From: an uncultured Planctomycetota bacterium
Lineage (GTDB): Bacteria; Planctomycetota; J058
Direction: 5' to 3'
Length of the DNA stretch: 59,460 nucleotides
Assembly (NCBI GenBank): GCA_964569055.1
Contig: CAZMSZ010000001.1
Location: forward strand, 1-59,460
Made by a program: the position numbers and the translations under genes. The notes beneath the pieces are model-generated. The model was not told the origin of the DNA. It was given only the letters and a program-made list of their open reading frames with translations, and did not search any database. Positions 7,020 to 34,023 of the stretch are shown here, one piece after another; the stretch's first letter is position 1; each line of letters opens with the position of its first letter.

Positions 7020-9797
7020 ATGCCAAATCTCATCACGCCCCAGGTCAGCTATCCCGGTGTCTACGTCGTGGAACTGCCCGAAGGGCCGCCCGCTGCCACG
7101 GGCGTCCCGACCTCCATCACGGCGTTCCTGGGCCGGACGCTGATCGGGCGGGTGAACACCCCCACGCTGCTGACCAGTTTCGGGCAGTTCGAGAGCCTGT
7201 TCGGAGGCCTCGTCAAGGATTACCCGCTCTCTTATTCCGTGCGAGACTTCTTCGCCAACGGCGGTACGCAGGCCATCGTCGTCCGCCTGTACCACACCGA
7301 TCCGTTGCCGCCAATCGACCCCTGGAAGGCGGCGGGCGGGGCAGCGGCGCTCGGCTGGCTCGTGGCCCAGATCAAGGGTGGCGCCGAGACTGGGACCGCC
7401 ATCGCAAAGACGATCACGGATCCGCACTTCCTCACCAAGACCCTCGGGATCACCCCGCCTAGCACGGCGCAAGCCAGCATGAGCTCCGGTGCGACCGCCG
7501 TGGCGAGCGCCGTGAACAAGGCGATCGGCAAGTCGTCGGCGACCGGGACGGCGCTCGACGGTGCATATCAGCCGGCGACTCAGGCCTTCCTCAACGCGAT
7601 GCTCGGGTTGTCGGGTTCGAGCGCGCTCAGCGGCACCCTCTCGACCCAGACCCTAGTGTCCCTGCTCGACGACGCGCTGTTGGTGTACGAGGCGCTCGAG
7701 GCCTCGCCGCAGCCGACCGCGCCCCCGCCCTTGGTGGGAGAACCGAGCTTCGGGATCGACGTGGCGACCGCTGCCGCGGAGCTCGCCGGCGGCGCGGCGG
7801 GCGTGTCACTCTACGGCGTGCCACCGGGCCTCGGCGCCGAGGCGGTCGCCGACCTGCCGCGGGTCCAGGGGGCCGCTCAGACCTTGGCCGCGATGTGGGC
7901 GCTCACCACCAACCCCCTCTCGAACCCCACCCCGGCGCAGCTCGCCAGCGCCGCAGCCGCCGCCGCCCAGCAGGTGGTCGGCGGCACGCAGCGCTACGGC
8001 GCGGCGCTGATCTCCGCGTCGGCGGCAGCAGCCGCGGGGAGCGCGGCGGCGACCGCAGCCAGCGTGCTGAACGCGGTGCTGACGACCTTTGCCACGGACC
8101 CACAACTGCTCGGCAAGGGCGGTTCGAGCAAGACCGGAGGTGCCGCGGCCGGGGCGGGGGGCGAGGGGAGCGCTGGCTCGGGTGGAGCGGGGAACGCCAA
8201 GTCTGGCGCCCCCCCCTTCCCCAACCTCGCGGCGCTGTACCTCGGCATGGCGGGGGTGAACGGACTCGGCAGTGGAGCCAGCGGCAGCGCCGGAGTCGTG
8301 CTCCTCACTGGCGTGGGCGACTCGCCAGGGCTGGGTCAGGCGCTGGCCAAGGCGATCGATGCCGCGCAGCCGGGGACGGGGAGCGACAAGACCCCGGCCA
8401 CCAGCGCCATGACCGAGGTCATGGGCGCGGTCGCTGGCTTCCAGACCGCCCAGGACGTCCTGGACTTCTTGCTCGGCACCGTGATGGCGCAGGCTCCCTT
8501 GGTTCAACTGGTCGCGAGTGGACCCGGTACCTGGGGGAACGACCTCACCGTCTCGGTCAGCCCGAGCTCGGCCAACGCCGCCACGCTCAAGAGCATGGGC
8601 TTCAAGCTGCAGAAGGGAGACCTGTTCGACGTCACGATCACCTACCAGCCACCCGGGCGTGGGCCGACCACGGAGGTCTTCAACAACCTGACGCTGATGC
8701 CGGGCACGCCGTACACGATCGACACCGTGCTCAACGCGCAATCGTTGTACGTGCAGGTGAAGAACGTGGTGACGTGGGAGGGTGGGACGCGCCCGCCCGA
8801 CCGCGCGTTCGTGGCGCCCGACACCTCCTCGTCGGCGTACTTCCTGAACGGGCTCGACGGCGGCAACCTCACGGTGAGCGACTACCTCGGCGACCCGACT
8901 CAGAAGACGGGGATCTACGCGCTCACCGACGTCGACATCTTCAACTTGCTCTGCATCCCGCCCGACGTGCGGATCGACCTCAACAATTACGTCGCGGCGA
9001 TGGACACCAGCGTGCAGGTCTACCAGGCGGCGCTGGCCTACTGTGCTGCTCGGCGCGCGATCTTGCTGCTCGACCCGCCGTGCCTCTGGTACAAGCAGCT
9101 CAAGATGGGTTCGCTCGGCGACGCGGTCGCGGAGTACATCACCCAGATCGGCGGCGGCGACGAGGCGCGCAACGCGGCGATCTACTTCCCTCACATCAAG
9201 GTCGCCGATCAGCTCCAACAGTCGATGGTCCTCCCGTTCGCCCCCAGCGGCGCGGTGGCGGGCGTCATCGCGCGGACCGACGCCACACGCGGGGTGTGGA
9301 AGGCGCCGGCCGGGACCGAGGCCACCATCGACCAGATCGCTGGGCTGCAGGTAAACCTGACCGACGCCGACAACGGCGAGGTCAACCTGCTGGGGCTCAA
9401 CTGCCTGCGGACGTTCTCGCTCTACGGGCCCGTCGTGTGGGGCGACCGCACGCTCCGCGGCGAGGCGCAACTGGCCGACGAGTACTGCTACCTCTCGGTC
9501 CGGCGGCTGGCGCTCTACATCGAGGAGAGCCTCAAGCGCAGCACCCTGTGGGCGACCTTCGAGCCCAACGCGGAGCCGCTGTGGACCGCGCTGAAGGGTG
9601 AGATCACCGCGTTCATGAACACCCTCAAGAGCGAGGGGGCGTTCTACGCGTTCAGCGTGCAGTGCGACGCGACCACGACCACCCAGGCCGAGATCGACCA
9701 GGGCGTCGTGAAGGTGCTGATCACCTTCGCCCCGGTCAAGCCCGCGGAGTTCGTGGTGCTCTACTTCCAGCAGACGGCCGGACAGACGACGTCGTAG
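7020..9797 (+). CDS. Contractile tail sheath protein (eCIS sheath, unusually long at 925 aa)
   Basis: ATG at 7020 within ORF 5817..9797. The N-terminus is MPNLITPQVSYPGVYVVE...TSITAFLG. C-terminal blocks KTGIYALTDVDIFNLLCIPP, AAIYFPHIKV, APSGAVAGVIARTDATRGVWKAPAG, NCLRTF..GPVVWGDRTL and YLSVRRLALYIEESL are canonical sheath signatures. Confidence 0.9.
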   Translation: MPNLITPQVSYPGVYVVELPEGPPAATGVPTSITAFLGRTLIGRVNTPTLLTSFGQFESLFGGLVKDYPLSYSVRDFFANGGTQAIVVRLYHTDPLPPIDPWKAAGGAAALGWLVAQIKGGAETGTAIAKTITDPHFLTKTLGITPPSTAQASMSSGATAVASAVNKAIGKSSATGTALDGAYQPATQAFLNAMLGLSGSSALSGTLSTQTLVSLLDDALLVYEALEASPQPTAPPPLVGEPSFGIDVATAAAELAGGAAGVSLYGVPPGLGAEAVADLPRVQGAAQTLAAMWALTTNPLSNPTPAQLASAAAAAAQQVVGGTQRYGAALISASAAAAAGSAAATAASVLNAVLTTFATDPQLLGKGGSSKTGGAAAGAGGEGSAGSGGAGNAKSGAPPFPNLAALYLGMAGVNGLGSGASGSAGVVLLTGVGDSPGLGQALAKAIDAAQPGTGSDKTPATSAMTEVMGAVAGFQTAQDVLDFLLGTVMAQAPLVQLVASGPGTWGNDLTVSVSPSSANAATLKSMGFKLQKGDLFDVTITYQPPGRGPTTEVFNNLTLMPGTPYTIDTVLNAQSLYVQVKNVVTWEGGTRPPDRAFVAPDTSSSAYFLNGLDGGNLTVSDYLGDPTQKTGIYALTDVDIFNLLCIPPDVRIDLNNYVAAMDTSVQVYQAALAYCAARRAILLLDPPCLWYKQLKMGSLGDAVAEYITQIGGGDEARNAAIYFPHIKVADQLQQSMVLPFAPSGAVAGVIARTDATRGVWKAPAGTEATIDQIAGLQVNLTDADNGEVNLLGLNCLRTFSLYGPVVWGDRTLRGEAQLADEYCYLSVRRLALYIEESLKRSTLWATFEPNAEPLWTALKGEITAFMNTLKSEGAFYAFSVQCDATTTTQAEIDQGVVKVLITFAPVKPAEFVVLYFQQTAGQTTS

Positions 9798-9815
9798 ACG
9801 ACGAGGAGCCCAGAC

Positions 9816-10337
9816 ATGCCAGCAGTGGGGGGAACGAACACGCCCAGCGATCCGTACCGGAACTTCCTGTTCCGGATCCAGGTCTCGGGAGTGGGCGGTG
9901 GCTATGTGGCCGGCGTCAACGCGGTGTCAGGGCTCACGCGGACCGTGAACACGGTCCCGTACCGCACGGGCGGTGACCCCAACACACACGTGGCGCCGGG
10001 CTCGGTGGTCTGGCCGCCGATCACGCTGAGCCGGGGCCTGACCAACGACAAGGCTTTCCAGACATGGGCGAATACATGCTGGTCCTACGCCAACGTAAAG
10101 GGATTGGTGGGCCAGAATGCGAAGCCCGTTTCGCTCAAGGACTTCCGCCAGACCCTCATCATCGAGGTGTATGACGTCTCCGGGGCGAAGGTCCTGACCT
10201 ACACCGTATACAACTGCTGGGTCTCGGAGTGGAACGCGCTCCCCGAGCTCAACGCAGGTGGCAACGCGCTCGCGATCGAGTCGATGGTCATCCAGAACGA
10301 AGGCTGGGAGCTCGAGTTCGCCGCCAGCTCCTCATGA
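9816..10337 (+). CDS. Tail tube protein (T4 gp19-like / eCIS tube)
   Basis: 173 aa with a GAGGAG RBS. The N-terminal DPYRNFLFRIQVSG... is typical of the conserved phage-tail-region tube family, and the gene follows the sheath gene directly. Confidence 0.85.
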   Translation: MPAVGGTNTPSDPYRNFLFRIQVSGVGGGYVAGVNAVSGLTRTVNTVPYRTGGDPNTHVAPGSVVWPPITLSRGLTNDKAFQTWANTCWSYANVKGLVGQNAKPVSLKDFRQTLIIEVYDVSGAKVLTYTVYNCWVSEWNALPELNAGGNALAIESMVIQNEGWELEFAASSS

Positions 10338-11068
10338 CCGCGCACCTCTCGACCCACACGGCGCTGGCTGCGAGCGACGTGGTGGCGCTGTGGGAGTGGG
10401 GACAACGGCGGTCCTCGGCGGACCGCGCGCTCGCCATGCTGCAGGCGGCGCACCCGGAGCGCGCCTGGGACGACCTGGCGCGCCTGAGCATCGGGCAGCG
10501 GGATGCGCTGCTGGTCGAGCTCCACTCGGGGACGTTCGGACCCACGCTGCAGGCCCAGGTGAGCTGTCCTGACTGCGGAGCGCCCTCGGACTTCCAGGTC
10601 GAATGTCGCCGCCTGCTGCTGAGCGCGCCCTCCTTCGAGCCGGATGAGCGACCGCGCGAAGTCGAGCTCGCGGGGCGTGTCTTCCGCTTCCGCCTGCCCA
10701 ACAGCCACGACCTCGCCCGCATCGCGGGGGAGGGTGATCCGGAGGTGGCGCGCCGCGCGCTCGTGTCGGGGTGTGTGCTCGGTGACGAGCCCCTCGACGA
10801 GGGGCTGAGCGCGCGCATCGGCGCCGCAATGCTCGAGGCGGACCCGCAGTCGCATCTGCAACTGGAGATGCGCTGTCCCAGCTGCGAATGTGCCTGGCTG
10901 GCCGACCTGCACGCGGAGGACTTCCTCTGGCGGATGGTGGAACGGCTGGCGCGTCGCTATCTGCGCGAGGTCCAGCAGCTCGCGCGGGCGTACGGCTGGC
11001 AGGAGGCCGAGATCCTCGCCATGAGCGCGGAGCGGCGTGGCTTCTACCTCGAGGCGCTCGAATCGTGA
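10334..11068 (+). CDS. eCIS-associated hypothetical protein with a two-CxxC zinc ribbon (tail-assembly-chaperone position)
   Basis: ATG at 10334 overlaps the tube stop (ATGA). Contains CPDC (QVSCPDCGAP) and CPSC (MRCPSCECAW). It sits directly upstream of the tape-measure-like ORF and is coupled to it by a GTGA overlap. Confidence 0.6.
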   Translation: MTAHLSTHTALAASDVVALWEWGQRRSSADRALAMLQAAHPERAWDDLARLSIGQRDALLVELHSGTFGPTLQAQVSCPDCGAPSDFQVECRRLLLSAPSFEPDERPREVELAGRVFRFRLPNSHDLARIAGEGDPEVARRALVSGCVLGDEPLDEGLSARIGAAMLEADPQSHLQLEMRCPSCECAWLADLHAEDFLWRMVERLARRYLREVQQLARAYGWQEAEILAMSAERRGFYLEALES

Positions 11069-13860
11069 GCGAGCTGGGCCGGCGGCTCGCGGTGTGGGCG
11101 CTCGGCGCGCCGGGAGGCCTGCTCCCGGCCGGCGTCTCGCTGTTCGGTCGCGGAGCGGTCCTCGCGAGCGATTCGCCGCCCCGGTTCCAGCCAGCACAGC
11201 GTGCGGTCCGCAGGGCTCGGCGCTCGGCGCCGGCCTTCCGTGCGTTGCTGCCGAGTGGTGCCCGAACCTGGCGAGTCTCCGAGCTTCTGGCGGACCCCGG
11301 CGCGGCGAGGCTCGCGCCGCCCGAGCCGACGGGGACCCTCGCCTCCGAGCCCGAGGCGGAGCGCGGCCCGAACCCTGTGCACGACGCGGCGCGCCCGGCT
11401 CCGCACCGTTTCGGGCGACTCGGGACCGACCTCGACCCCCCGTCTTCGGCGACAGGGGCCTCGACGGACGGTGCGGTGAGAACGGGGCCGGGGCATGCTG
11501 CGCGCGTCGCGCCGGAGCTCGCGCCAGGTCGATCCGAGCCGGTGCGTCCTCCCGGCGCGGGCGATCCGGGACCCCGCGACGCGCGCCGTGCGGCGTCGGA
11601 CGCGCTCGGTGCGGCCCCCACGCTCGCCAACGAGGCACCGCACGGCGGGGACGCAGCCGGATCGCGCGCGAGCGCCGTCCCCGGGGGCGGCGAGGAGGAG
11701 CCGCCCGGCGGGCCGCAGCACGATCGGCCCTCGCCTGCCCCGCTCGGCGCTCTGACGCCTCGCGCGAGTGACGTGACCCACGCGTCGCCGGTCGGACCCG
11801 GCTCGGAACGAGTGGGGCGGTCACCGAGCACGGACGAGCCCCCCGCCATGGGCTGGAGCGAGCTCGCCGCGCGGTCTCCGTCGGTCCCGCCCGGTGGGGT
11901 GCCGACTCCACCGAGCGGCGACGACGCGCCTCCGGCCGTGCAGGAGCGACACGGCGCGATCGTCGCGGATCCGCCCGCCGAGCCCCAGCCGGCTACGACT
12001 CCGGGCGACGAGCCAACCGACGCTGCGCATGCGGCTCCCTCCCCGGCGCAGCACCCAAGCGCTCCGGGCTCCCTCTCGACGGCGCGAAGCCCTCGCGGCT
12101 CGCTCGTGCGCGCCCGGACGGACGCTCCAGCACCAGCACCCTCGGAGGCCGATCCTCGATCTCCGGCGCGGCCGAAGCGACCGACCGGCACGACGGCGCC
12201 GGTGGAGTCGGTCGAACTCGGCGCGCGTCCGCCAGCGCCGCACCAGGCCGTGGCGGGTCAGGCCGCCACGTCGCATGACGCGCCCCAGGTCGCCGATCGC
12301 CGGCTCACGGAGGCCGCGGCGACGCGCCCCGCATCGCTCCCGACCCCTTCGCGTCGGGCTGAGACGCCCGAGGTCGCCTCGGCCCAGGCTTCGGCGCAGG
12401 TCGCGGCGGCCCGTTCCGACTTGCCCCCGGCCGCGGCGCCACGGACTGCCTCGCCACGGAGCGACTCGCCCGAGGACGCTGCCCGGTCCCCGGCCATCTC
12501 GCCGTGGGCCTCGCAGGTCGCGCCCGCGCGGCACACCGCTGCAGGGCAGTCACGAAGCGGCGGCTCCGAGCGCGGGCGGCGGCAGAGCGCCGGCGCGCCC
12601 GGCGAGCCCGCCGCGCCGGCACACCGCGCCGAGCCGACGAACGCGAGCGAGCCTCGCGTCGAGGGGCGCGCGACGGTAACCGGTGGTGGCGCTCCTGGGC
12701 GAGGCGAGTCGGCCGTGGGCGCACGTCCCGTCGCCGCGCCGTCGGCCGCGCACCGTGGGTCTCCGGGGACATCCGAGGCCGGGAGCTCGCGACGCGCGGG
12801 ACGAGCACCCGTCGTGGCTCCCGAGCCCGGCGTGGTCGGAACGCCGCGCGCGGCCGGGAGGGCCCTCGTCGTGGCTGCCGAGCACGGCGTGGTCGGAGCG
12901 CCGCGCGCCGTGGCTGACGAGCCCGAGGTCGCGGGAGCGCCGCGCGCGGTCGGGCGGGGGACCGTCATCGCTGACGGGTCCGGCCTGGCCGGAGCGCCAC
13001 GCGTGGTCGGGCGGGCGCCCGTCGTCGCTGACAGGCCCGGCGTCGTGGGAGGACCGCGCGCTGCGGGACGTGCACCCGTCGCGGCTGACGGGCCCGGCGT
13101 CGCGGGAGGGCCGCGCGCGGGCGTGCTCTCTCCCGCGGGCCGCCCAGTGGCCGACGTCGGCGCGCGGACGGAGGCGAGCGGACACGCCTCCGCGGAGCGC
13201 CGGCGGCTAGAAGCTACGGCCGTCGTGGCGCGCTCGAGGGGCGCCCCTGGGGCAGCATGGGCGTCGGTCGAGACTACTCCGCACGACTCTGCGGCATCGG
13301 GCAGTCCTCATGTCGCCAAGGCCGAGCGCCAGCCGAGGGGAGACGCGTGGTCCGGCCCGCTCGAGCATGCCTCCCAGTCGCGACCGAGCGCGCGCCCGGC
13401 GTCGGCGGACGGGACGCCGCCTCAGCGCGGTGTCAGCTCGCCGGGGGCATCGCGGGCAGCCGAGGCCCGCGCGCCCGCCGCGAGCTCCTCGCGTGGCTTC
13501 CCAGGCGCCGAGCATGGCGCGGAGCCAGGACGCGCGGCATCGGCCCAGGCCACACGCCCGGCGCGCGCTCTCGAGGTGGGGTCGGACCATGCCAGGGCGC
13601 CCCAGGGCAGCGCGCCGCGGCTCGCCCCCGTTGGGGCAGGTGCGCAGCGAGGGCCTCTCCTCCCGTCAGCGGACGGTCTCGAGCCCGCGGTCCGCGCTCG
13701 TCCGGCCCCAGAGCCCGTGCGGTCGCTTCGGGGCGTCGTGATCACGATCGGCCGCGTGGAGGTTCATCCCGAGGAGCCCCTGGCGCCCGTGCGCCGCGAC
13801 GTGCACCGTCCGGGCCGCTCGCTCGACGACTATCTGCGGGCCCGCGGGAGGCGCCGGTGA
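11065..13860 (+). CDS. Tape-measure-like tail length determinant (Afp14-position), low-complexity Ala/Pro/Arg/Gly-rich
   Basis: GTG at 11065 and the stop at 13860 both form GTGA overlaps with their neighbours. The short structured ends (VSELGRRLAVWALGAPGGLLP...; ...VVITIGRVEVHPEEP...LDDYLRARGRRR) flank about 900 low-complexity codons. The frame was chosen from the coupling, since other frames and the other strand are also open here. Confidence 0.55.
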   Translation: MSELGRRLAVWALGAPGGLLPAGVSLFGRGAVLASDSPPRFQPAQRAVRRARRSAPAFRALLPSGARTWRVSELLADPGAARLAPPEPTGTLASEPEAERGPNPVHDAARPAPHRFGRLGTDLDPPSSATGASTDGAVRTGPGHAARVAPELAPGRSEPVRPPGAGDPGPRDARRAASDALGAAPTLANEAPHGGDAAGSRASAVPGGGEEEPPGGPQHDRPSPAPLGALTPRASDVTHASPVGPGSERVGRSPSTDEPPAMGWSELAARSPSVPPGGVPTPPSGDDAPPAVQERHGAIVADPPAEPQPATTPGDEPTDAAHAAPSPAQHPSAPGSLSTARSPRGSLVRARTDAPAPAPSEADPRSPARPKRPTGTTAPVESVELGARPPAPHQAVAGQAATSHDAPQVADRRLTEAAATRPASLPTPSRRAETPEVASAQASAQVAAARSDLPPAAAPRTASPRSDSPEDAARSPAISPWASQVAPARHTAAGQSRSGGSERGRRQSAGAPGEPAAPAHRAEPTNASEPRVEGRATVTGGGAPGRGESAVGARPVAAPSAAHRGSPGTSEAGSSRRAGRAPVVAPEPGVVGTPRAAGRALVVAAEHGVVGAPRAVADEPEVAGAPRAVGRGTVIADGSGLAGAPRVVGRAPVVADRPGVVGGPRAAGRAPVAADGPGVAGGPRAGVLSPAGRPVADVGARTEASGHASAERRRLEATAVVARSRGAPGAAWASVETTPHDSAASGSPHVAKAERQPRGDAWSGPLEHASQSRPSARPASADGTPPQRGVSSPGASRAAEARAPAASSSRGFPGAEHGAEPGRAASAQATRPARALEVGSDHARAPQGSAPRLAPVGAGAQRGPLLPSADGLEPAVRARPAPEPVRSLRGVVITIGRVEVHPEEPLAPVRRDVHRPGRSLDDYLRARGRRR
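12799..13125 (+). repeat. Tandem 57-nt (19-aa) repeat inside the tape-measure-like ORF
   Basis: Units GRAPVVAPEPGVVGTPRAA / GRALVVAAEHGVVGAPRAV / (13-aa partial) / GRGTVIADGSGLAGAPRVV / GRAPVVADRPGVVGGPRAA / GRAPVAADGPGVAGGPRAG. Equivalent positions fall at 12808, 12865, 12961, 13018 and 13075. Confidence 0.75.
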
Positions 13861-15053
13861 GTAACGCCCTCGCCGTGGCCACGGTCACCGCCGCCCTGCA
13901 GGTGCTCCTCGACCGGGCCGCGCGCAGCGTGGTGGCCGGTGCGGGCGCGACGACGCTCAGCCCGACGGCATTGCCGGAGCGAATCCAGCCGGCGGCCGGG
14001 GTCAACGTGTGGTTGTTCCTGGTCCGGCCGAACGTGGCGCTGAGCAACGCCGACCTGCCGCGAGTGTCGGGGGGGCGGCTCACCCGACGGCCGCAGGTCG
14101 CCCTCGACCTCGACTACTTGCTGACGTTCTTCGGCAAGGACGAACACCTCGAGCCGCAGCGCATCCTCGGCGCGGTCGTGTCGACGCTCCACGCCGAGCC
14201 GCTGCTCTCGGTCGAGCGGACGCGCAGCCTCGCCGAGGACCCGCCGCCGGGGAGGCGGTTCCTGGCGGGGTCCGACCTGCACACTCAAGACCCCGTGCGC
14301 CTGGAGCGCATCGTGATCGAGACCGACGAGATGCATCGACTGTGGGCGCTGTTCGGGAACACTCCCTACCAGCTCTCGCTGGTCTATCGCGCGAGCGTCG
14401 TGCTGATCGACGCGGAGGTGGAGCTCGCGAGCCAGTTGCCCGCCCTCGGCGTCGACCCGGGGGTGACGCCGTTGGGGGTGCCTTGGATCAACGCGGCCTC
14501 GGCCGTTGCGCGCGCCGGCGAGGCCCTGGAGCTGCGCGGGCTGTTCCCGACGGCGCCCAGCGCCGTCGTGCTGAACGGGCGGGTCGTCCCCGCGGGGAGC
14601 TGGCTCACGAGCGCCCCGGGGTGCGTCGACGTGACCCTCGTCCCCGAGCTCATCGCGACCGCGCGGCTGAGCCCGGGCCCCGTCCAGGTGGCCCTGCGCT
14701 TCGCGACCGACGCGGGCGAGCTCACGAGCGCTCCCGCCGAGACCAGGTTCCTCCCCGCGGTCGCGAGCGCGCGCGCGAGCGGTGCCTCGCTCGAGGTCAC
14801 GCTCGTGCATCCGGTCGACCCCGCGCGCACGGTGCGAGCCATGCTCGACCCGGTGCCGCCGGCCCGTGGCAAGAGCGCGGCGCTCGACGGCCCACCGCGG
14901 AGCGGCTGGAGCACGACCCTCACGTTCTCGGTCCCTCCGTGGCTCCCCCCCGGGGCATATCTGCTGCGGGTCGAGGTCGCCGGCGCGCAGAGCGAGCTCG
15001 AGCTGCGACGCGGGCGCTTCGCCGGGCCGGTCGTGGAGGTGCAGGGTGCCTGA
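13857..15053 (+). CDS. DUF4255 (Pvc16/Afp16-like) tail terminator/cap protein with C-terminal extension
   Basis: GTG at 13857 (GTGA overlap). The N-terminus VSNALAVATVTAALQVLLDRAA is the characteristic DUF4255 opening. At 398 aa it is roughly twice the length of a bare DUF4255 domain. Confidence 0.8.
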   Translation: MSNALAVATVTAALQVLLDRAARSVVAGAGATTLSPTALPERIQPAAGVNVWLFLVRPNVALSNADLPRVSGGRLTRRPQVALDLDYLLTFFGKDEHLEPQRILGAVVSTLHAEPLLSVERTRSLAEDPPPGRRFLAGSDLHTQDPVRLERIVIETDEMHRLWALFGNTPYQLSLVYRASVVLIDAEVELASQLPALGVDPGVTPLGVPWINAASAVARAGEALELRGLFPTAPSAVVLNGRVVPAGSWLTSAPGCVDVTLVPELIATARLSPGPVQVALRFATDAGELTSAPAETRFLPAVASARASGASLEVTLVHPVDPARTVRAMLDPVPPARGKSAALDGPPRSGWSTTLTFSVPPWLPPGAYLLRVEVAGAQSELELRRGRFAGPVVEVQGA

Positions 15054-15357
15054 GGGGCGCGACCAAGCAGGATCGTCGAGTGAGGCACATCGGCTCGAGC
15101 GGCTGCACCTCGAGCAGCTCGTGCTGCATGGCTTCAGCGCGGGCCAGGCCGGGTGGGTCGAGGCGGCCGTGATGTCCCGGCTACACCGGCTCGCCGCGGG
15201 GAGAGGGTTCGCACCGAACGCCGGCGACGCGCTCCACGTGCCGCACCTCGAGGTGGCAGTCGGGCGTGGGGCCTCGGTCGAGGCGGTCGCCGATCGGGTG
15301 GTAGCGGCGATCCAAGCGGCCGTGAACCACCCCGCGCCGAGGGGGAGGCCCCAATGA
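15046..15357 (+). CDS. Small hypothetical protein (eCIS cluster)
   Basis: In-frame GTG at 15046 overlaps the DUF4255 stop, and its own stop overlaps the next start (ATGA). GC3 is poor in the first ~15 codons, so the true start may be further downstream. Confidence 0.35.
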   Translation: MPEGRDQAGSSSEAHRLERLHLEQLVLHGFSAGQAGWVEAAVMSRLHRLAAGRGFAPNAGDALHVPHLEVAVGRGASVEAVADRVVAAIQAAVNHPAPRGRPQ

Positions 15358-15983
15358 CGCTCAGCGGGTTGCAGCCTGCTCACCACCAGGGCGCTCTGGT
15401 CGTCGCGAGCTCGACCGGCGCTACCCAAACCGTCCGGTTCCAATACAACCCCGAGACATTGCGGCGCCAGCTCCAGCCTCAGCTCCGCGGCGGCAACGTG
15501 GACGAGCACTCGGACGAGACCCACTACGTTGGCGCGCCGATCGAGCAGATCGCCGTCGAGGTCCTGCTCGACGCGACGACGGCGCTCGGCCGAGGCGACC
15601 GGACGGCTCAGGAGCACGGTATCCTCCCGCAGTTGGCCCTCCTCGAGACGATCTTCTATCCCAGCTCGCGAGACGTGACCCAAGCCCAGGCCACCGTCCA
15701 GAGGGGCTACCTCGAGGTCACCCCGTTCGTCGTGCCGCTGGTGCTCTTCGTGTGGGGCAAGCGGGCGGTGCCCGTGCAGCTCACCTCGTACGCGGTGACC
15801 GAGGAGCTGTTCGACGCCAAGCTCGACCCGATCCGCGCCCACGTCCAACTGACCATGCGGGTGCTCACGTACTCCGACGTCTCGATGTCCAACCCGGCGA
15901 ACGCGCTCTACCTCGCCCATCAGAAGCAGATGGAGAGCATCGCCGCCAAGGCGAACCCCGGCGCAGGGTTCTCGATCCCCTGA
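15354..15983 (+). CDS. Tube-like / tube-initiator protein (CIS tube N-domain, Afp7 N-terminal-like)
   Basis: ATG at 15354 (ATGA overlap). TQTVRFQYNPETLRRQL is the F-x-Y/F-NPE-x-L motif of CIS tube-fold baseplate-proximal proteins. 209 aa. Confidence 0.7.
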   Translation: MTLSGLQPAHHQGALVVASSTGATQTVRFQYNPETLRRQLQPQLRGGNVDEHSDETHYVGAPIEQIAVEVLLDATTALGRGDRTAQEHGILPQLALLETIFYPSSRDVTQAQATVQRGYLEVTPFVVPLVLFVWGKRAVPVQLTSYAVTEELFDAKLDPIRAHVQLTMRVLTYSDVSMSNPANALYLAHQKQMESIAAKANPGAGFSIP

Positions 15984-15991
15984 GGCAGCCA

Positions 15992-16294
15992 GTGTTCGAT
16001 CGCTCCAGCCGCTACGCGGGGCTCCCCCGCCTCCGCTTCGAGAACGCCGAGGGCCAGCAGATCGCCTACGTCGGACGGCGCCTGCTCCCCATCCCGCGGC
16101 GCAGCGACATCGCCTCGGTGGTGACCGTGGAGCCGGGGGAGCGCCTGGACGCGGTGGCGAGTCGCTCGCTCGGGGTCGCGACCCTCGCCTGGCGGCTCGC
16201 CGACTACAACCCCACGCTGGATCCGCTGGCGCTGTGCACCCCAGGGGAGAAGCTCGACGTGCCGACACCCTTCGCGGGCGGGAACGCGCCGTGA
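15992..16294 (+). CDS. LysM-like small protein (Afp7 C-terminal-like)
   Basis: GTG at 15992, 100 aa. The segment VTVEPGERLDAVASRSLGVATLAWRLADYNP resembles a LysM fold. It is a separate ORF from the tube-initiator-like gene. Confidence 0.5.
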   Translation: MFDRSSRYAGLPRLRFENAEGQQIAYVGRRLLPIPRRSDIASVVTVEPGERLDAVASRSLGVATLAWRLADYNPTLDPLALCTPGEKLDVPTPFAGGNAP

Positions 16295-17520
16295 AGGCGC
16301 AGATCGAGGTCCTGCTGGGGCGCGTGGTCCCGACGCCGATCTCGGCGGCGATGGTGCAGGCCATCGAGAGCATCGAGGTGCGGCAGGTCCTCGAGGGGCG
16401 CGCCACGTTCCAGCTCGTGTTTCGCGTGGAGCGCGCCGCCGGCGCGGCGGACTTCGACGTGCTGTCCGGGATCCAGGGCCGCGTCATGCCCTCGGTCCGC
16501 ACGATCATCAGCGCGGCGATCGGCGGGAGCAAGGACGTCCTCATGGACGGCTACATCACCAGCGTCGAGGTCACTCCCTCCGACGGCGCGCGGCCCGCGC
16601 TGGTGACCGCCACCGGGGAGGACGTCAGCGTGCGCATGGACCTCGTCGAGCACTCGACCGAGTGGCCGTGCATGACCGACTACGTGATCGCGAACGCGAT
16701 CATCCTGAGCAACGCCGACCTGGCGCTGATCCCGCTGGTCGTCCCCGCGCCGGGCGGCACGCTCGTCCCGCCCAACCCTATCCAGAGCACGCCCTTCCAG
16801 CAGGGAACGGACTATCAGTACCTGCTCTACCTCGCCCAGAAGTACGGCTACACCTTCCGCGTCTACCCGGGCCCGGTGGCGGGCACCAACTACGCCTACT
16901 GGGGCCCGATCGTGCAGACCAGCCCGGTCCGTCAAACGCCGCTCACCGTCGGGACCGGGGTCGAGGCGAACGTGCAAGGGATGGTGTTCAGCTACGATGG
17001 GCTGCAGCCGCACCTCGTGATCGGCGAGGTCTACGACGACCTCCTGGGCGGGCTGCCCCTCGTCACCGTGCCCTCGCCGATCGACCCCTGCTTCTACGCG
17101 GAGCGCCCGCCGATCGTCGTTCAACCGCTCTTCTTTCGCACGACGTACCGGACGTATCCGGCGGGTGGGAGCTACCTCAAGGCGCTGGCGTACGGGATGG
17201 GCGAGGTGCTCGCCTCCCAGATGTCGGTGGCCACGGCCTCCGGGCGACTGGATGTGTTCCGCTACGGCGGGCTGCTCAGGCCGTACGAGGCAGTCGGCGT
17301 CCGCGGGGCGGGCGCCTCGTTCGATGGCTACTACTTCGTGACCGACGTCACGCACCACATCCGGCAAGGGGTGTTCACTCAGGAGTTCCGCCTGGCGCGC
17401 GGGGGCCTGGGCTCGCTCTACTCCAGCGTCGGCCCCGTGTCGGGGCCGGCGGAGGTCCCCGCCTCGGTGTCGAGCGCCATCACAGAGGCCGAGACCGTCG
17501 TGTCCGGCCTCGACTATTGA
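16291..17520 (+). CDS. Baseplate hub protein, phage late-control gpD / gp27 (VgrG N-domain)-like
   Basis: GTG at 16291 (GTGA overlap). The C-terminal YYFVTDVTHHIRQGVFTQEFRLARGG resembles the conserved end of the gpD/VgrG core. It sits directly 5' of the gp5-like spike gene. Confidence 0.65.
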   Translation: MKAQIEVLLGRVVPTPISAAMVQAIESIEVRQVLEGRATFQLVFRVERAAGAADFDVLSGIQGRVMPSVRTIISAAIGGSKDVLMDGYITSVEVTPSDGARPALVTATGEDVSVRMDLVEHSTEWPCMTDYVIANAIILSNADLALIPLVVPAPGGTLVPPNPIQSTPFQQGTDYQYLLYLAQKYGYTFRVYPGPVAGTNYAYWGPIVQTSPVRQTPLTVGTGVEANVQGMVFSYDGLQPHLVIGEVYDDLLGGLPLVTVPSPIDPCFYAERPPIVVQPLFFRTTYRTYPAGGSYLKALAYGMGEVLASQMSVATASGRLDVFRYGGLLRPYEAVGVRGAGASFDGYYFVTDVTHHIRQGVFTQEFRLARGGLGSLYSSVGPVSGPAEVPASVSSAITEAETVVSGLDY

Positions 17521-17531
17521 AGGGAGGGTGC

Positions 17532-18419
17532 GTGGCGACGCAGCAGGGTCCGGCGGGAGGGAGCAGCGGAGGCCCCTACTACGGCAAGTTCCGTGGGCGC
17601 GTGCTCAACAACATCGACCCGCTCGGACTCGGTCGGCTCCAGGTGACGACGGACAGGTTCCCGGGGATGATGCTGAACTGGGCGCAGCCCTGCTTCCCGT
17701 ATGCCGGGCCGTTCGTAGGGTTCTATGCGGTCCCGCCGATCGGGGCCATGGTGTGGGTCGAGTTCGAGGGGGGGGACCTCAACTACCCCATCTGGGTCGG
17801 TTGTTTCTGGGAGCCGGGGCGAGGCCTGCTCGCCGTGATGGCCGCCCCCGAGCTCGCGCCCGACAAGCAGATCATCCACGGGCCCGACGTGAGCCTGACC
17901 CTCGACAGCACGCCGGGGGTGGGCGGGGCGACGCTCCAGGTCGGGCTCGCGACCACCAACCGGCCGCAGTCGATCACGATCAACGTGGCCGGCATGACGC
18001 TCGAGAGCCCGCCAGCCTCGGTCAAGCTCAGCCCCGAGGGGATCGTGGCCGCGGTGGAACCGGGCGGGACGATGCTGATCTCCGAGGCTGAGGTCTCGAC
18101 GAACATCGGCGCAGCGAAGACCACGCTCACGCCCGCCGCGATCCTTCACTCGGTGCCCGAGTGCAAGGTCACGGTCACGGGCGCGGGGATCGGGGCGAGC
18201 GCCCCACCCAATAGCTGGACGCTCACGCCGGAGCTCGCGCAGATGGCCACGCCCGCCACCAGCGTCGGGCTGACCGCCGCGTCGGTGGAGCTCGTCGCGG
18301 AGGACTCCACCGCCAGCATCACGCCAGCCCTGATCGAGTTCGAGCAGGCAGCCGCGTCGGTGAGCCTGGCGGGGGCGGTCGTCAACATCAACGAGGGACT
18401 CGAGGTCCTGCCGGGCTGA
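17532..18419 (+). CDS. Spike protein, gp5 / baseplate-V OB-fold type
   Basis: GTG at 17532 behind GAAGGGAGGG. YYGKFRGRVLNNIDPLGLGRLQV...WAQPCFPYAGP..GFYAVPPIGAMVWVEFEGGDLNYPIWVGCFW is the gp5/gpV OB-fold signature. The C-terminal half is repetitive and beta-rich. Confidence 0.75.
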   Translation: MATQQGPAGGSSGGPYYGKFRGRVLNNIDPLGLGRLQVTTDRFPGMMLNWAQPCFPYAGPFVGFYAVPPIGAMVWVEFEGGDLNYPIWVGCFWEPGRGLLAVMAAPELAPDKQIIHGPDVSLTLDSTPGVGGATLQVGLATTNRPQSITINVAGMTLESPPASVKLSPEGIVAAVEPGGTMLISEAEVSTNIGAAKTTLTPAAILHSVPECKVTVTGAGIGASAPPNSWTLTPELAQMATPATSVGLTAASVELVAEDSTASITPALIEFEQAAASVSLAGAVVNINEGLEVLPG

Positions 18420-18441
18420 TGCGAGCCCCAGCGGAGGAGCG

Positions 18442-19148: not shown

Positions 19149-19155
19149 GCCCGCC

Positions 19156-21573: not shown

Positions 21574-24500
21574 GCGCCGATCAGCCCACCCCCTCGTTCC
21601 CGCCGGGGCAGCCCGCCTTGAGGCATTCGCTCGGCAACTACGAGAGCTTCTTGGCCGAGCTGCTGACCGCGACGCCGCTCGCTCAGTTGCCCGACGGCCC
21701 ATTCGCCGGCACGCGCCCGCTGGCGAGCATGGACCTCAGCGCGGGCGCCGGCTTCGGGCGGGCCTACCTCGAAGCCTGGGCCCGCGTGAGTGACGTGCTG
21801 TCCTTCTATCAAGAGCGCCTGATGAACGAGGGCTACCTGCGGACGGCCGTCCAGGCGTCCTCCGTCCGGCTGTTGCTCGCGTCGCTCGACTACGCGCCCT
21901 TCCCTGCGGTCTCGTCCGAGGTGCTCCTGGCGTTCACCGTCGTCGATCCGAGCGACGGCTCGCCCGTGACGATCCCGCCAGGAACCGCCGTGCAGAGCGT
22001 CCCCAGCGGGGCAGCGGGCCTGCCGCTCACGTTCGAGACCAGCGAGCCCGTCCGGGCGCGGGCCGCGTGGAACGCGCTCGCGGCCTACGTCCCGCCGCCC
22101 GGCCAGCCGCCCTACGTCCCCGTGCCGCCTCCTCCCGCGCCGTCCGGGCCAGCGGGACAGGTCGTGCTGCAGGGCGTGAACCTCGGCCTCAAGCGGGGAG
22201 ACCGGCTGCTGATCCGCAGCGGGGCACTCCCCGACGCGTGGTTCCTGGCCCAGATCGCGGCCGTCGACGCGCGGCCCAAACAATCGCTCACCAGGTTGAC
22301 CTGGACGGTGGAGGCGGGCTCGGTCGGCCCCGGCGAGAAGCTGTCCCAGCCGGAGGCCTACGCGCTCCGCGCTACGACCGGCCTGTTCGGGGCGACGGCG
22401 ACCGACTGGACCCGCCTGTCGCTGGACGCCAAGCTGCAGGCGGGGGCCACGCCCAAGGGCGGTGCCAGGCGGGCGACCGCCGGCGTCGGCGAGATCCCAT
22501 GGCGACCGCGCAAGCCGGACGAGGACTGGACCTCGGCCCAGCGAGGGCTGTCGACCAACGCGTGCTTCGCCTGCGGTGTCGGCGCCGCCGTGTTCGTCGG
22601 CAGTCTCGACCGCGGCCTGTTCGTGTCCCGAGACGGCGCGCGCACCTGGAGCAGCGCTGGGGTGGGGATCGGCAACAAGCCCGTCCTGTGTCTGGCGCAC
22701 CATCCCGAGGTGGGGCTGGTCGTCGGGTCCACGGCTGGCGGTGTGTTCCGCTCCACGGACGGCGCGAGCACTTGGCAGCGCATCAGCGGAGGCAGCGTCC
22801 AGCTCAAGGAGATCCCCGGCCGAGCCACCAAGGCGCCTCCCGGGAGCGCGACCGGCGCCCCCTCGTCCTCTCCGACACCCTCCTATCGGGCCCAGATCAC
22901 CCGCCTTCCCCTGAGCGCCGTGCGCTCGCTCGCGATCGTCGACACCCCGCTCGACCCGAATGGGGGCCGGGTCCCGACGCTGTGGGCGGGCACGGACGCG
23001 GGGGTCTACGTCAGCGAGGACCTCGGCGCCACCTGGGCCCCCATGAGCGACGGGCTCCCGACGGCCGGCAGCGGCGGGTCTTCGCCGACCGACGACACGC
23101 GGACCGCGAGCGTCAGCGTGAAGGCGTTCGCGCTGCAGCCGGTGGAGTTGGGCGGGCTCCGGCTGTTCGCGGGCACCTCGGGCGGGCTCTACTCGTGCGC
23201 GGTGCCAAACCTGCACGCGCGGCCGCAGTGGGCGCCCGCCGGTCCGCCGGGCCTCGCCGTGAACGCGCTGCTGTGCACCGGCGACGGCACGGTCCTGGCG
23301 GGGACGAGCGGCGGGATCTGGGTCTATCCGCCGACGGCCGACGCGCCGACCGGGACCCCCCGGCTGGTCGGCCGCGCGGTGCGGGCGCTCGCTTCGATCG
23401 ACATCGCCCAGGACGGCGAGGACGAGGCGTCGCCGCGGATCGAGCGGGTGTTCGCCGCCACCGATGTCGGGCTCTACTACTCCGACGAGCTCGATCGTGA
23501 CCCGTGGCATGCGATCCCGGTGCCTCACACCACGGAGCTCGTGGCGGTCGCGACCGCCAGCCCCGACGTCCTGCTGTGCGCGGGGCCGCTGGAAGGTGTG
23601 ATCGAGTCGGAGTGGCCGGGGTTCCACATCCCCGAGCCCGTGTCCGGGCAGGCGACGATCGACCTCGACCGCGTGGTCACCACGGTCCAGCCGTACGGCT
23701 GGGCCGTGCTGTTGCCCGGTACGCCGCCCCCGCCTCCGGGGATCACCGCGACCGTGCCACCGCGGCCCGCGCCCAAGCTCGTGACGCCCCCGTCCGCGAA
23801 CTCGTACTCCGTCGCGCAGACGACGACCGCCGCTCCGATGCGGTTCGGACTGCTCGGGAGCGTCACGCGCCTGACGGTCACCGGCTCGACAGACGCGCTG
23901 GGTGATCTGCACCTCTACGACCTGCGCTCGACGCTGGCGCTGGTGGCGAGCGAACGGCTGTCGCTGAGCTCGACCACGCTCGCCTTGTCCGCCGCGTCCG
24001 CGAGCAGAGCCGGGCCGACGTCGCCGTTCTGCGCGACATTCGGGGCGTCGGCGCTGGTGTTCGGTGACACGCTCGACCTCGTGGCGGGGGCCGCTGGGCT
24101 CGAGGCGGGCCGGACCCTGCTGGTCGGCGGTCGGCCCATCCGGCTCCTGGTAGACGGGTCTTGGGCGAACGTGACCGGCGCGCGCGTGCTCGCCTCGGGG
24201 GTGACGGTGGTGGTGTGCGAGGGCGACGGAGGTCGACTCACCTCCCAGCGAGACGTCGAGCCGGACGCTGTCTTCGCGGCCCAGGACCCGTCCGGCCCGC
24301 TGACGTACGAGGCCGTGAGCGTGGCTGGGCTCGAGTTGCTGGCCGACCGCGTCCGCGTGAGGCTCGCGCCGCCGGGGCTGATGGGGGTCTACGATGCGGC
24401 GAGCGTGGTGGCCTACGGGAACGTGGCGCTGGCGAGCGAGGGTCAGACGCACCCCACGTCGAACGCTGGCAACCAGCTTCCGGGCTCGGGGGAGGTGCTC

Positions 24501-25541
24501 GGAAGCGGCGACCGCTCCAAGCGGTTCCAGCAGTTCGCGCCCGCCTTCCAGCCCCTCAGCTACGTGCGCGACCCCGTGACGGGTGAGATCGGCCCCGCGC
24601 TCCGCGTCCGCGTGGACGACGTGGAGTGGTCCGAGACGCCGGCCTTGCCGCTGGCGGGACCGGACGACCGGGTCTATGCGGTGCGCCCGGGTGCGTCGAG
24701 CATCACGATCGAGTTCGGGGACGGGCGACACGGCGCGCGCCTCCCGAGCGGAGTGAACAACGTCACCGCCACCTACCGCGCCGGTTCGGGCGCGGCCGGG
24801 AACGCGCCTGCTGGTGCGATCAAGATCCTGCCCGGCGCGGGGGTCACGCTCTCGCAGGTCGTCAACCCGCTCCCAGCCCAAGGCGGCGTCGACCCGCAGC
24901 CTCTCGCCGTCGCCCGCTCCGCAGGCCCGATTCGTTCGCGCCCGCTCGGGCGCGTGGTCTCGATCGCCGACCTGGTCGACTTCGTGCAGACCTACCCGGG
25001 GGTGGGGAAGGCCGCGACCTTCGAGGTCGCGACGCCCCGCGGCAAGCTGCGCGTGCTGACCATCGCCGGCGACGACCAGCGCCCCCTCCCGCCAGGCGCG
25101 CCGCTTCGCGAGCTGATGACCCGGGCGATCGCCGCGGCCAGCGCTCCCGACTCGGACCTGGCGCAGGGCGTCCAGCTCGCCACCTACACGCCGCGCACGT
25201 TCGTGGTCGGCGCGCGGCTGACCCTCGCGCCGGGCGCGGCCGAGCAGCCCACGCTCGCCTCCGCCGCCCAGGCGCTGCGAGCGCGCTTCTCGTTCGAGCG
25301 GCGCCAGTTCGCCCAGCCGGTGACGGCCGCCGAGGTCGTGACGGCCCTGCAGGAGGTGCGGGGCGTGGTGGCCGTGCGGCTGACCGCGCTGGCCCTCACC
25401 CGGGTCCTCTCGGGGGAGCAGCCGGCCTCGGTCCTGCCGGCGGCAGCCCCGAGCTGGACGGAGGGCGCGCTCAGGTCGGCGGAGCTCCTGCTGCTCGGAC
25501 CGGACGAGGCGAGCGTGCGGCTCGTGGCAGGTGCGGTGTGA
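21570..25541 (+). CDS. Large baseplate protein (baseplate-J-like, gp7/Afp12 position) with an inserted Asp-box/BNR-like beta-propeller
   Basis: GTG at 21570 (GTGA overlap). The N-terminal block is NYESFLAELL...YLEAWARVSDVLSFYQERLMNEGYLRTA. The C-terminal block is GNVALASEGQT...LGSGDRSKRFQQF...VRVDDVEWSE...DRVYAV...FGDGRHGARLPSG..NVTATYRAGSGAAGN. The middle carries repeats such as FVSRDGARTW, FRSTDGASTW and YVSEDLGATW. Confidence 0.8.
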   Translation: MSADQPTPSFPPGQPALRHSLGNYESFLAELLTATPLAQLPDGPFAGTRPLASMDLSAGAGFGRAYLEAWARVSDVLSFYQERLMNEGYLRTAVQASSVRLLLASLDYAPFPAVSSEVLLAFTVVDPSDGSPVTIPPGTAVQSVPSGAAGLPLTFETSEPVRARAAWNALAAYVPPPGQPPYVPVPPPPAPSGPAGQVVLQGVNLGLKRGDRLLIRSGALPDAWFLAQIAAVDARPKQSLTRLTWTVEAGSVGPGEKLSQPEAYALRATTGLFGATATDWTRLSLDAKLQAGATPKGGARRATAGVGEIPWRPRKPDEDWTSAQRGLSTNACFACGVGAAVFVGSLDRGLFVSRDGARTWSSAGVGIGNKPVLCLAHHPEVGLVVGSTAGGVFRSTDGASTWQRISGGSVQLKEIPGRATKAPPGSATGAPSSSPTPSYRAQITRLPLSAVRSLAIVDTPLDPNGGRVPTLWAGTDAGVYVSEDLGATWAPMSDGLPTAGSGGSSPTDDTRTASVSVKAFALQPVELGGLRLFAGTSGGLYSCAVPNLHARPQWAPAGPPGLAVNALLCTGDGTVLAGTSGGIWVYPPTADAPTGTPRLVGRAVRALASIDIAQDGEDEASPRIERVFAATDVGLYYSDELDRDPWHAIPVPHTTELVAVATASPDVLLCAGPLEGVIESEWPGFHIPEPVSGQATIDLDRVVTTVQPYGWAVLLPGTPPPPPGITATVPPRPAPKLVTPPSANSYSVAQTTTAAPMRFGLLGSVTRLTVTGSTDALGDLHLYDLRSTLALVASERLSLSSTTLALSAASASRAGPTSPFCATFGASALVFGDTLDLVAGAAGLEAGRTLLVGGRPIRLLVDGSWANVTGARVLASGVTVVVCEGDGGRLTSQRDVEPDAVFAAQDPSGPLTYEAVSVAGLELLADRVRVRLAPPGLMGVYDAASVVAYGNVALASEGQTHPTSNAGNQLPGSGEVLGSGDRSKRFQQFAPAFQPLSYVRDPVTGEIGPALRVRVDDVEWSETPALPLAGPDDRVYAVRPGASSITIEFGDGRHGARLPSGVNNVTATYRAGSGAAGNAPAGAIKILPGAGVTLSQVVNPLPAQGGVDPQPLAVARSAGPIRSRPLGRVVSIADLVDFVQTYPGVGKAATFEVATPRGKLRVLTIAGDDQRPLPPGAPLRELMTRAIAAASAPDSDLAQGVQLATYTPRTFVVGARLTLAPGAAEQPTLASAAQALRARFSFERRQFAQPVTAAEVVTALQEVRGVVAVRLTALALTRVLSGEQPASVLPAAAPSWTEGALRSAELLLLGPDEASVRLVAGAV

Positions 25542-34023: not shown

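Follow-up and report, generated by a model that had tools for sequence, protein, structure and literature searches.

We identify in a 59,460-nucleotide stretch of DNA from an uncultured Planctomycetota bacterium (contig CAZMSZ010000001.1; the whole stretch is hereafter called the window) a cluster of 21 genes, all read in one direction between positions 7020 and 36278 of the plus strand, whose identity as a contractile injection system (CIS) is close to certain. The explanation that best covers the whole of the evidence, and which we regard as likely, is that these genes form one chromosomal operon for a CIS of 'lineage II', a widespread kind distinct from Afp/PVC, targeted by a fibre and furnished with payload candidates. 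This kind of system is already known and widespread, and the gene order is the normal one for that kind. An earlier reading of the same DNA (the original prediction) had proposed a complete CIS operon at 7020-34023, and the core parts, as recognised by profile hidden Markov models (HMMs) and by ortholog profiles, bear this out. Its limits match the start of the sheath gene and the stop of the ATPase gene; two further same-strand genes that it had missed, g19 and g20, carry the operon on to 36278.

Genes were called in the window, which has a G+C content of approximately 73%, from third-position GC and start context. The junctions between the 21 genes are overlapping or short (at most about 105 nucleotides, nt), while the gene that follows the operon, at 36571-38700 on the minus strand, is convergent. 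The twenty open reading frames (ORFs) previously listed for 7020-34023 are indeed co-directional, although we count 19 genes there, among them one for a protein of 103 amino acids (aa) at 15046-15357; this gene (g05b) and g03 had not been named in the earlier parts list. Genes called independently on Logan contigs from this organism include the same ORFs of 925, 173, 244, 931, 398, 103 and 209 aa at the 5' end, and likewise those of 241 and 487 aa at the 3' end. The genes, with the principal matches of their products (E-values unless stated), are as follows.

g01, 7020..9797, plus strand: sheath (Cis2-type), 925 aa; Phage_sheath_1C 9e-15.
g02, 9816..10337, plus strand: inner tube (Cis1/gp19-type), 173 aa; Phage_T4_gp19 1.2e-32; TIGR02241 1.3e-29, above its cut-off.
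g03, 10334..11068, plus strand: T4 gp26-like ('baseplate hub') protein, 244 aa; PF12322 T4_baseplate 5e-9; phrog_150 baseplate hub 1.6e-7.
g04, 11065..13860, plus strand: ruler-like protein in the tape-measure slot, 931 aa; named by position and architecture.
g05, 13857..15053, plus strand: tail terminator or cap (Cis16/Afp16-type), 398 aa; Pvc16_N (DUF4255) 4.4e-33; orthologs in 55 related loci.
g05b, 15046..15357, plus strand: small conserved protein, 103 aa; an independent gene call agrees.
g06, 15354..15983, plus strand: tube initiator/adaptor (CIS_tube; tube part of Cis5/Cis7), 209 aa; PF19266 CIS_tube 1e-9; orthologs in 18 loci.
g07, 15992..16294, plus strand: LysM-like protein (the LysM part of Cis7 as a separate gene), 100 aa; LysM-type pattern in the ortholog alignment.
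g08, 16291..17520, plus strand: gp27/gpD-like baseplate hub, 409 aa; the N-terminal half of a VgrG-type spike as a separate gene.
g09, 17532..18419, plus strand: gp5-type OB-fold spike, 295 aa; Phage_base_V 1.5e-19.
g10, 18442..18765, plus strand: PAAR-like (DUF4280) spike tip, 107 aa; DUF4280 0.02, sub-threshold.
g11, 18783..19148, plus strand: gp25-type baseplate wedge/sheath initiator (Cis9), 121 aa; GPW_gp25 4.9e-15.
g12, 19156..21573, plus strand: Cis11/Afp11-type baseplate protein, first copy, 805 aa; TIGR02243 4.6e-51 (174 bits, above the 155.8 cut-off); related to g13.
g13, 21570..25541, plus strand: second Baseplate-J/Cis11-like protein, 1323 aa, with large extra domains; TIGR02243 4.7e-44 (151 bits, just under the cut-off).
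g14, 25538..27604, plus strand: probable Cis12/P2 gpI-like wedge protein, a tentative assignment from its position after the J-like genes, 688 aa.
g15, 27618..31085, plus strand: tail fibre, 1155 aa; DUF6519 1.4e-29 with an inserted LamG domain (Laminin_G_3 3e-8) and a C-terminal Kelch beta-propeller (Kelch_1 2e-19).
g16, 31191..31544, plus strand: small protein, 117 aa from an ATG with a GGAGG ribosome-binding site; paralogue of g17 (BLASTP E about 1e-8).
g17, 31638..32015, plus strand: small protein, 125 aa; paralogue of g16.
g18, 32053..34023, plus strand: CIS-associated AAA+ ATPase (Cis15-type), 656 aa; AAA 2.2e-22, WHD 2e-13; one classic-clade AAA domain.
g19, 34027..34752, plus strand: payload candidate, 241 aa; disordered Ser/Thr/Pro-rich leader of about 60 aa and a small domain with 'DG.HR'.
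g20, 34815..36278, plus strand: payload candidate and last gene of the operon, 487 aa; disordered leader of about 130 aa and a predicted EEP (DNase I/CdtB-like endonuclease/exonuclease/phosphatase) domain.

The eight-component core of extracellular contractile injection systems (eCIS) defined by Chen et al. 2019 is present in its entirety (tube, sheath, and the Afp7, Afp8, Afp9, Afp11, Afp15 and Afp16 types), the LysM part being weak. According to the literature, eCIS can be told apart from phage tails by the combination of a Pvc16_N cap and a dedicated AAA ATPase. The original prediction had relied on this hallmark, and both elements were recovered (Pvc16_N at 4.4e-33; AAA at 2.2e-22 together with WHD). 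The ATPase g18 is CDC48/VCP-like, not Clp-like, and is 41% identical over 604 aa to the CIS ATPase of Pendulispora, with which it shares its WHD+AAA architecture. Profile-HMM searches likewise support the earlier assignments of sheath, tube, DUF4255 protein, CIS tube protein, gp5 spike, gp25 and ATPase, above or near the curated cut-offs. The gpD hub, the LysM protein and the PAAR-like tip lack a clear Pfam match and are supported indirectly, through ortholog profiles or weak matches.

That the operon is a defective prophage tail module or an R-type tailocin, delivering no cargo, is highly improbable. Such a module would explain why every structural part has phage-tail homologues, and the order of sheath, tube, chaperone-like protein, tape-measure protein (TMP), terminator, hub, spike, gp25, J, I and fibre resembles the gene order of the P2 tail module, on which the parallel is based. 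It would leave unexplained the Pvc16_N cap with its dedicated ATPase, the hundreds of syntenic head-less relatives and the two leader-bearing enzyme candidates at the 3' end. Furthermore, searches of the flanking ORFs with Pfam and PHROGs revealed no capsid, portal, terminase, integrase, lysis or type VI secretion system (T6SS) genes in the 59-kb window, where head and holin/endolysin genes are also missing. The absences stated in the original prediction, T6SS membrane-complex and ClpV genes included, thus hold for the window. The unassigned flank ORFs have no PHROG match, there is no tRNA in the window, and its other sizeable ORFs are housekeeping or regulatory genes according to Pfam. The system is neither a prophage tail nor a T6SS.

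In order to place the operon among known systems, one genome per species was scanned with a sheath alignment, yielding at least 593 sheath relatives, from which 80 loci were kept; the cap protein, used alone as a query against reference genomes, returned nothing, and the sheath alignment was needed to find relatives. When the proteins of the block were compared with the kept loci by tblastn, 55 loci were found to hold sheath, tube, g03 and cap. These related loci come from Streptomyces, Cyanobacteria, Acidobacteriota, Chloroflexota, Planctomycetota, Proteobacteria and Bathyarchaeota, and all 55 present the order sheath-tube-g03-ruler-cap. The gene order that had been called non-canonical does differ from that of Afp/PVC, but since the ruler and cap follow the tube in every one of these loci, it is canonical for the lineage. 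Conserved, subtype-specific gene arrangements are a feature of lineage II according to Chen et al. 2019. A real peculiarity of the window locus concerns the ATPase, which directly follows the cap in 53 of the 55 loci, with CIS_tube, LysM-like, hub, spike, PAAR-like, gp25 and J genes coming after it; in the window, 17 kb separate ATPase and cap, and the ATPase stands behind the fibre in an Afp-like 3' position, followed by two extra genes.

The earlier assignment to the Afp/PVC class was not upheld. By its sequences, the operon belongs to lineage II of Chen et al. 2019, because it has a single sheath gene, lacks an Afp14 homologue, and encodes a sheath nearer to those of the haloarchaeal and Streptomyces CISs. 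Indeed, a search against Protein Data Bank (PDB) sequences matched g01 to the Halogeometricum borinquense CIS (9ezm, 1.2e-50) and to CIS-Sc of S. coelicolor (8bky/9gtp, 1.1e-49), with far weaker matches to the Afp/PVC sheaths (Pvc2, 4e-32; Afp2, 1.5e-26) and values of 6e-27 for 7b5h and 1e-23 for 7adz, of the AlgoCIS/Anabaena tCIS group. Foldseek with an AlphaFold 2 (AF2) model of g01 also placed 9ezm at the top (1.3e-23), then phage sheaths and CIS-Sc, and then Afp/PVC. With the Pfam model Phage_sheath_1, g01 scores 29.6 bits, slightly below the cut-off of 31.4.

Comparison with individual systems sharpens this picture. The Afp/PVC systems (lineage I) share with the window the eight-part core, an ATPase near the 3' end, downstream payload genes and a fibre, but possess three paralogous sheaths, have Afp14 as tape measure and carry TMP-ATPase-cap at the 3' end, whereas the window has one sheath and places ruler and cap after the tube; no Afp14-like match was found among the operon proteins. 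The CIS locus of the myxococcote Pendulispora albinea (CP089984.1) contains gene-for-gene orthologs at 28-49% identity, in the common order sheath, tube, g03, cap, CIS_tube, LysM-like, hub, spike, PAAR-like and gp25. It differs from the window in its ATPase (after the cap, not at the 3' end), its sheath (604 against 925 aa) and its ruler (384 against 931 aa), and the payload genes of the window are shared neither with this locus nor with the syntenic reference loci. CIS-Sc (type IId; Casu 2023, Vladimirov 2023, CisA paper 2025), whose sheath is one of the two closest solved ones, resembles the window operon in its one sheath gene, its Cis5/7/8/9/11 baseplate set, its lack of an Afp14 homologue, and a gene without assigned function (Sco4251) after the tube. 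It is, however, cytoplasmic and fibre-less and needs the transmembrane (TM) adaptor CisA, whereas the window operon encodes a fibre and no TM protein; its Cis8 and Cis7 are each one fused protein, whereas hub and spike, and tube initiator and LysM protein, are split here. The H. borinquense CIS ('archaeal T6SS'), the best sheath match by both sequence and fold, has two cis11 genes, as here, but is archaeal and plasmid-borne, carries toxin-immunity pairs, and is membrane-bound through the 6-TM protein Hbor_38620, the like of which is missing from the window operon. AlgoCIS and the Anabaena tCIS share with the window extra outward-facing sheath domains, enlarged Cis11/Cis12 proteins and a DUF4157-type cargo logic; they differ in that their cap is bipartite (Cis16A/B) and that they possess a crown (Cis19), to which tCIS adds a TM-anchored fibre, and their sheaths match g01 less well.

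Between tube and cap lie two genes that bear on the question of a tape measure. The first, g03, occupies the slot in which phages encode a tape-measure chaperone. Its homologues follow the tube in 73 related loci, with identities of 36-44% across phyla, and its CxxC...CxxC pattern has four cysteines that are invariant in the ortholog alignment; the g03 profile found no solved relative among PDB sequences. The second, g04, belongs to a family whose slot is kept in 55 of 55 related loci. The N-terminus of the family is conserved over about 35 aa (MSD[FY]L..LA.R.L...V[QR]PR.PS.FE), as is the C-terminus over about 45 aa (V.IGRIEVRA, a Pro-rich linker of about 20 aa, and SL[DE]DYL..R), and both motifs are present in g04. 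The middle is of low complexity, variable and Pro/Ala-rich, ranging from about 140 to about 2000 aa, so that total lengths run from 223 to 2076 aa with a median of 305. In g04, whose overall composition is 21% Ala, 15% Pro, 12% Gly and 12% Arg, the middle contains some five to six copies of a 57-nt (19-aa) tandem repeat at nt 12799-13120, which suggests length change through internal duplication. In most loci the ruler-slot gene overlaps the cap gene by 4 nt, indicating translational coupling. The longest member, of 2076 aa, is encoded at 15164-21394 of a locus (L032) from a Longimicrobium metagenome-assembled genome and has a degenerate C-terminal motif.

The earlier description of this product as tape-measure-like stands on position and architecture, no HMM having matched it. 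Conserved ends around a variable spacer, in the place that a tape measure classically takes, are what would be expected of a length ruler, and we tentatively suggest that this large CIS lineage may have its unrecognised tape measure in the g04 family; the papers on lineage II, CIS-Sc and haloarchaeal clusters describe such a component as absent. Against this stands the failure to detect homology of g04 to Afp14 or to phage TMPs, which leaves the proposed role positional and architectural. With 15% proline, g04 would form no long helix. An extended, non-helical chain spans about 0.3 nm per residue. If the ruler reading is true, the median length of 305 aa would correspond to particles of about 100 nm and the 931 aa of g04 to particles of about 250-300 nm. 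This Pro/Ala-rich protein would thus predict an unusually long particle, with a sheath coated by the helical insertion of about 400 aa described below. For comparison, CIS-Sc particles are uniform in length, at 233-268 nm.

It is also conceivable, though unlikely, that g04 is a cargo or effector packed in the tube lumen, or a disordered assembly scaffold, and does not set length. TMP-like proteins have been documented as CIS effectors, and the variable middle could serve as a linker, as do the linkers of more than 1000 aa in DUF4157 toxins. Like g04, Tme of S. davawensis and Sle1 of S. lividans, from Streptomyces CISs, are large, partly disordered and tied to the tube lumen or tape-measure idea; yet both differ from it in position and architecture. 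Tme combines an N-terminal DUF4157 domain, TM helices and a C-terminal endonuclease, all three of which g04 lacks, while Sle1 is a coiled-coil protein encoded upstream of the sheath, unlike g04 with its own conserved termini. A Tme-like DUF4157 effector was rejected as an identity for g04, as DUF4157 was found neither in it nor in six relatives. More generally, these seven proteins showed no Pfam domain, enzymatic or otherwise, and g04 has no TM helix; that both termini are conserved, with variation confined to the middle, and that translation of the gene is coupled to that of the cap in most loci, also argue against a cargo. As Cis15 and Cis16 of CIS-Sc lie in a separate unit, we make no claim that CIS-Sc holds a member of the ruler family.

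The second unusual protein is the sheath itself. At 925 aa, g01 is longer than any of 78 single-ORF relatives (508-785 aa) and of 57 database matches. The sheath alignment locates an insertion of about 400 aa (residues ~91-490, nt ~7290-8490) at a single site after the N-terminal strand, which is a site of variable surface domains. Two aligned relatives (P0041 and P0019) have smaller inserts there, and among the 57 database matches only one, P0002 (882 aa), is collinear with g01, carrying the insert at full length. The AF2 model (pLDDT 75 overall, above 90 in the core) renders the insert as about 14 helices followed by a disordered Gly/Ser/Ala stretch of about 70 aa (365-436) and three further helices; none of the solved sheaths among the top Foldseek matches aligns across it. 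Since the additional sheath domains of AlgoCIS face outward, the insertion is probably a surface decoration. Long sheath matches in five loci (L032, L035, L074, L085 and L086) were considered as even longer sheaths and rejected, as they are tandem sheath genes. Such duplicates, at least two per locus, occur in Longimicrobium, Hormoscilla, Nannocystaceae, Bacteroidota and Gammaproteobacteria relatives. Of the loci of P0002 (L004, L005 and L006), L004 encodes a 534-aa eCIS_core (DUF4157) + PARP protein directly upstream of the sheath gene; the window has RNase III in that place and lacks a DUF4157 gene.

The tube-initiator and baseplate block was resolved largely through ortholog profiles, as Pfam at E<=5 produced no LysM, Phage_GPD, Tail_P2_I or Exo_endo_phos match for g07, g08, g14 or g20, and PDB sequence searches with g12, or with g08 as a single sequence, found nothing. 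The g08 profile aligns with roughly the first 340 residues of VgrG/Cis8 chains (9rce_F 1.9e-10, 7aef_q 9e-8, 7b5h_AJ 5e-5, 9gtr_q 0.012), and g08 itself matches NCBIfam VgrG_rel at 3e-4. As this is the gp27-like half of those chains, hub and spike are separate genes here. Weak matches of the g07 profile fall on LysM regions, in Kbp (0.005), tCIS All3321 (0.11) and CIS-Sc 9gtp_P (0.84), and g10 is 41% identical to a Pendulispora ortholog that itself has a weak DUF4280 match. The small protein g05b has no Pfam or PHROG match and belongs to a family of about 90-115 aa with the pattern 'I..LVLHGF...IG..IA..IH', encoded just upstream of CIS_tube in at least eight of 12 relatives examined.

Of the two baseplate-J-like proteins proposed earlier, g12 clears the TIGR02243 cut-off and g13 falls just below it (151 against 155.8 bits), with further matches of g13 to CIS-Sc Cis11 (9gtp_1K, 2.6e-7) and Baseplate_J (0.024). 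Residues 347-409 of g13 match the F510_1955 glycosylhydrolase family (NF045728, 1.3e-13) and, weakly, Sortilin-Vps10/BNR-like proteins; this BNR/glycosidase-like segment may be a carbohydrate-binding insertion in the baseplate. The predicted P2 gpI-like protein, g14, could hardly be assigned. It has a conserved N-terminal motif ('R..VGNT.R.RR.KGTP'), and its orthologs in two loci (L035 and L080) adjoin homologues of g13 and g15; against the assignment, no Pfam or PHROG match was found, and the best hit of its profile is a marginal one (0.04) to the diffocin baseplate protein TRI-1.

The fibre g15 is built on DUF6519, catalogued as eBAP5, an eCIS fibre baseplate-attachment domain with an inserted domain (PMC12923769). 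The paralogues g16 and g17 that follow it have no family match in Pfam, NCBIfam or PHROGs and, judging by their position, are possibly fibre chaperones or adaptors; PHROGs also gave nothing for g19.

We agree with the original prediction that sequence alone cannot fix the mode of action. By analogy with characterised systems, we slightly favour a particle that is released and fibre-targeted, because the fibre is present and membrane proteins are lacking in the operon. Indeed, no TM helix or signal peptide is predicted in any operon protein, whereas relatives that are not released have recognisable membrane features, namely CisA, the Cis13 TM domain and Cis12 extension of tCIS, and Hbor_38620. 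Furthermore, the slot after the baseplate holds a DUF6519/Kelch fibre of 1155 aa with LamG and no CisA-like bitopic adaptor among the operon proteins, although an adaptor could be encoded elsewhere in the genome; CIS-Sc, by contrast, is fibre-less. Weighing against release, the nearest solved sheaths by sequence and fold come from systems that are not released (CIS-Sc, 8bky/9gtp, is cytoplasmic and the Halogeometricum CIS, 9ezm, membrane-bound), and the window contains no lysis cassette or release genes. These same points favour a CIS that stays in the cytoplasm or is anchored to a membrane and that acts within the producing cell, or is fired from that cell upon contact; CIS-Sc (stress-induced cell death and development), the Anabaena tCIS and the haloarchaeal T6SS-like CIS provide models. 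In tCIS, Cis11 and Cis12 have extensions that contact the membrane, of which the large extra domains of g13 and g14 are reminiscent, and a long ruler would give a long particle, comparable to CIS-Sc at 233-268 nm. With the membrane features of these models missing from the operon and a fibre in place, we consider this mode somewhat unlikely.

At the 3' end, the two genes after the ATPase are payload candidates of unequal standing. Published criteria for eCIS effectors are a 3'-end location and an association with DUF4157; g20 is the 3'-terminal gene, starting 62 nt after g19, and DUF4157 occurs in one of its two homologues, not in the window. This homologue, P0061, is a 736-aa DUF4157 (eCIS_core) protein. 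The catalytic positions of EEP enzymes are invariant in the g20 alignment (E167, N259, H337, D376, N407 and D418-H419), and the top 40 or so Foldseek matches of its AF2 model are all EEP enzymes, including CNOT6L, DNase I, nocturnin, TDP2, nSMase2, CdtB and ExoIII. It is reasonably probable that g20 is a payload, an EEP-type nuclease or phosphatase-like enzyme. Several results count against it: the model is of low confidence (pLDDT 46), the Pfam EEP model does not score g20 at E<=5, no DUF4157 protein is encoded in the operon, and no CIS genes occur within 10 kb of the DUF4157-fused homologue. The gene for the latter (L088:10001-12211, from a Fulvivirgaceae bacterium) is an orphan surrounded by genes for respiration and metabolism; the ORF after it, of 186 aa, is convergent.

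The case of g19 as a payload is more doubtful. It starts 3 nt after the ATPase stop, and the same ORF is found in five of the six independent contigs shown. An orphan in a word-indexed search, it has 11 distant relatives in which PHY, H134 and DG.HR are invariant, and weak matches to PFIN (0.03) and SbnI (0.012). These two families share a ParB/Srx-type fold, which for g19 can be put forward as a low-confidence guess; that the assignment depends solely on matches of E~0.01-0.03 speaks against it.

Taken as a working model, the baseplate would assemble around hub and spike, and the conserved C-terminus of the ruler would dock in the hub, with tube and sheath polymerising along the ruler until the cap binds. 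The ATPase may help to load leader-bearing payloads (g20 and perhaps g19) into the tube. The particle would then leave the producer and bind its target through the Kelch/LamG fibre, and contraction of the sheath would push spike, tube and cargo into the target cell.

In the flanks of the operon, RNase III lies immediately upstream and Mfd downstream, and other genes include kinases, a two-component system, an acetyl-CoA synthetase and a Na+/H+ antiporter. The myxobacterial-type host supposed in the original prediction would follow from the 73% G+C and these kinase-rich flanks; the best sheath relatives belong to many phyla. Three flank ORFs have unusual domain content. The convergent gene at the operon end (36571-38700, minus strand) encodes a 709-aa protein with GNAT acetyltransferase, SET methyltransferase and Rubisco-LSMT substrate-binding domains; the product of the ORF at 1212-2834 joins a Ser/Thr protein kinase to an FGE-sulfatase domain; and two TFIIB-type zinc ribbons (7.6e-24) are found in the 283-aa product of the ORF at 45918-46769.

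The locus adds one more complete, fibre-bearing lineage II CIS from a high-GC, soil-type bacterium, which is useful, though expected. As orphan, leader-bearing enzyme candidates, g19 and g20 add to the possible cargo and loading signals on record for eCIS, and the insertion in g01 may reveal how CIS surfaces become decorated or shielded. Finally, a ruler family of hypervariable length would offer a testable handle on particle length, a question left open by the structural papers on related systems.

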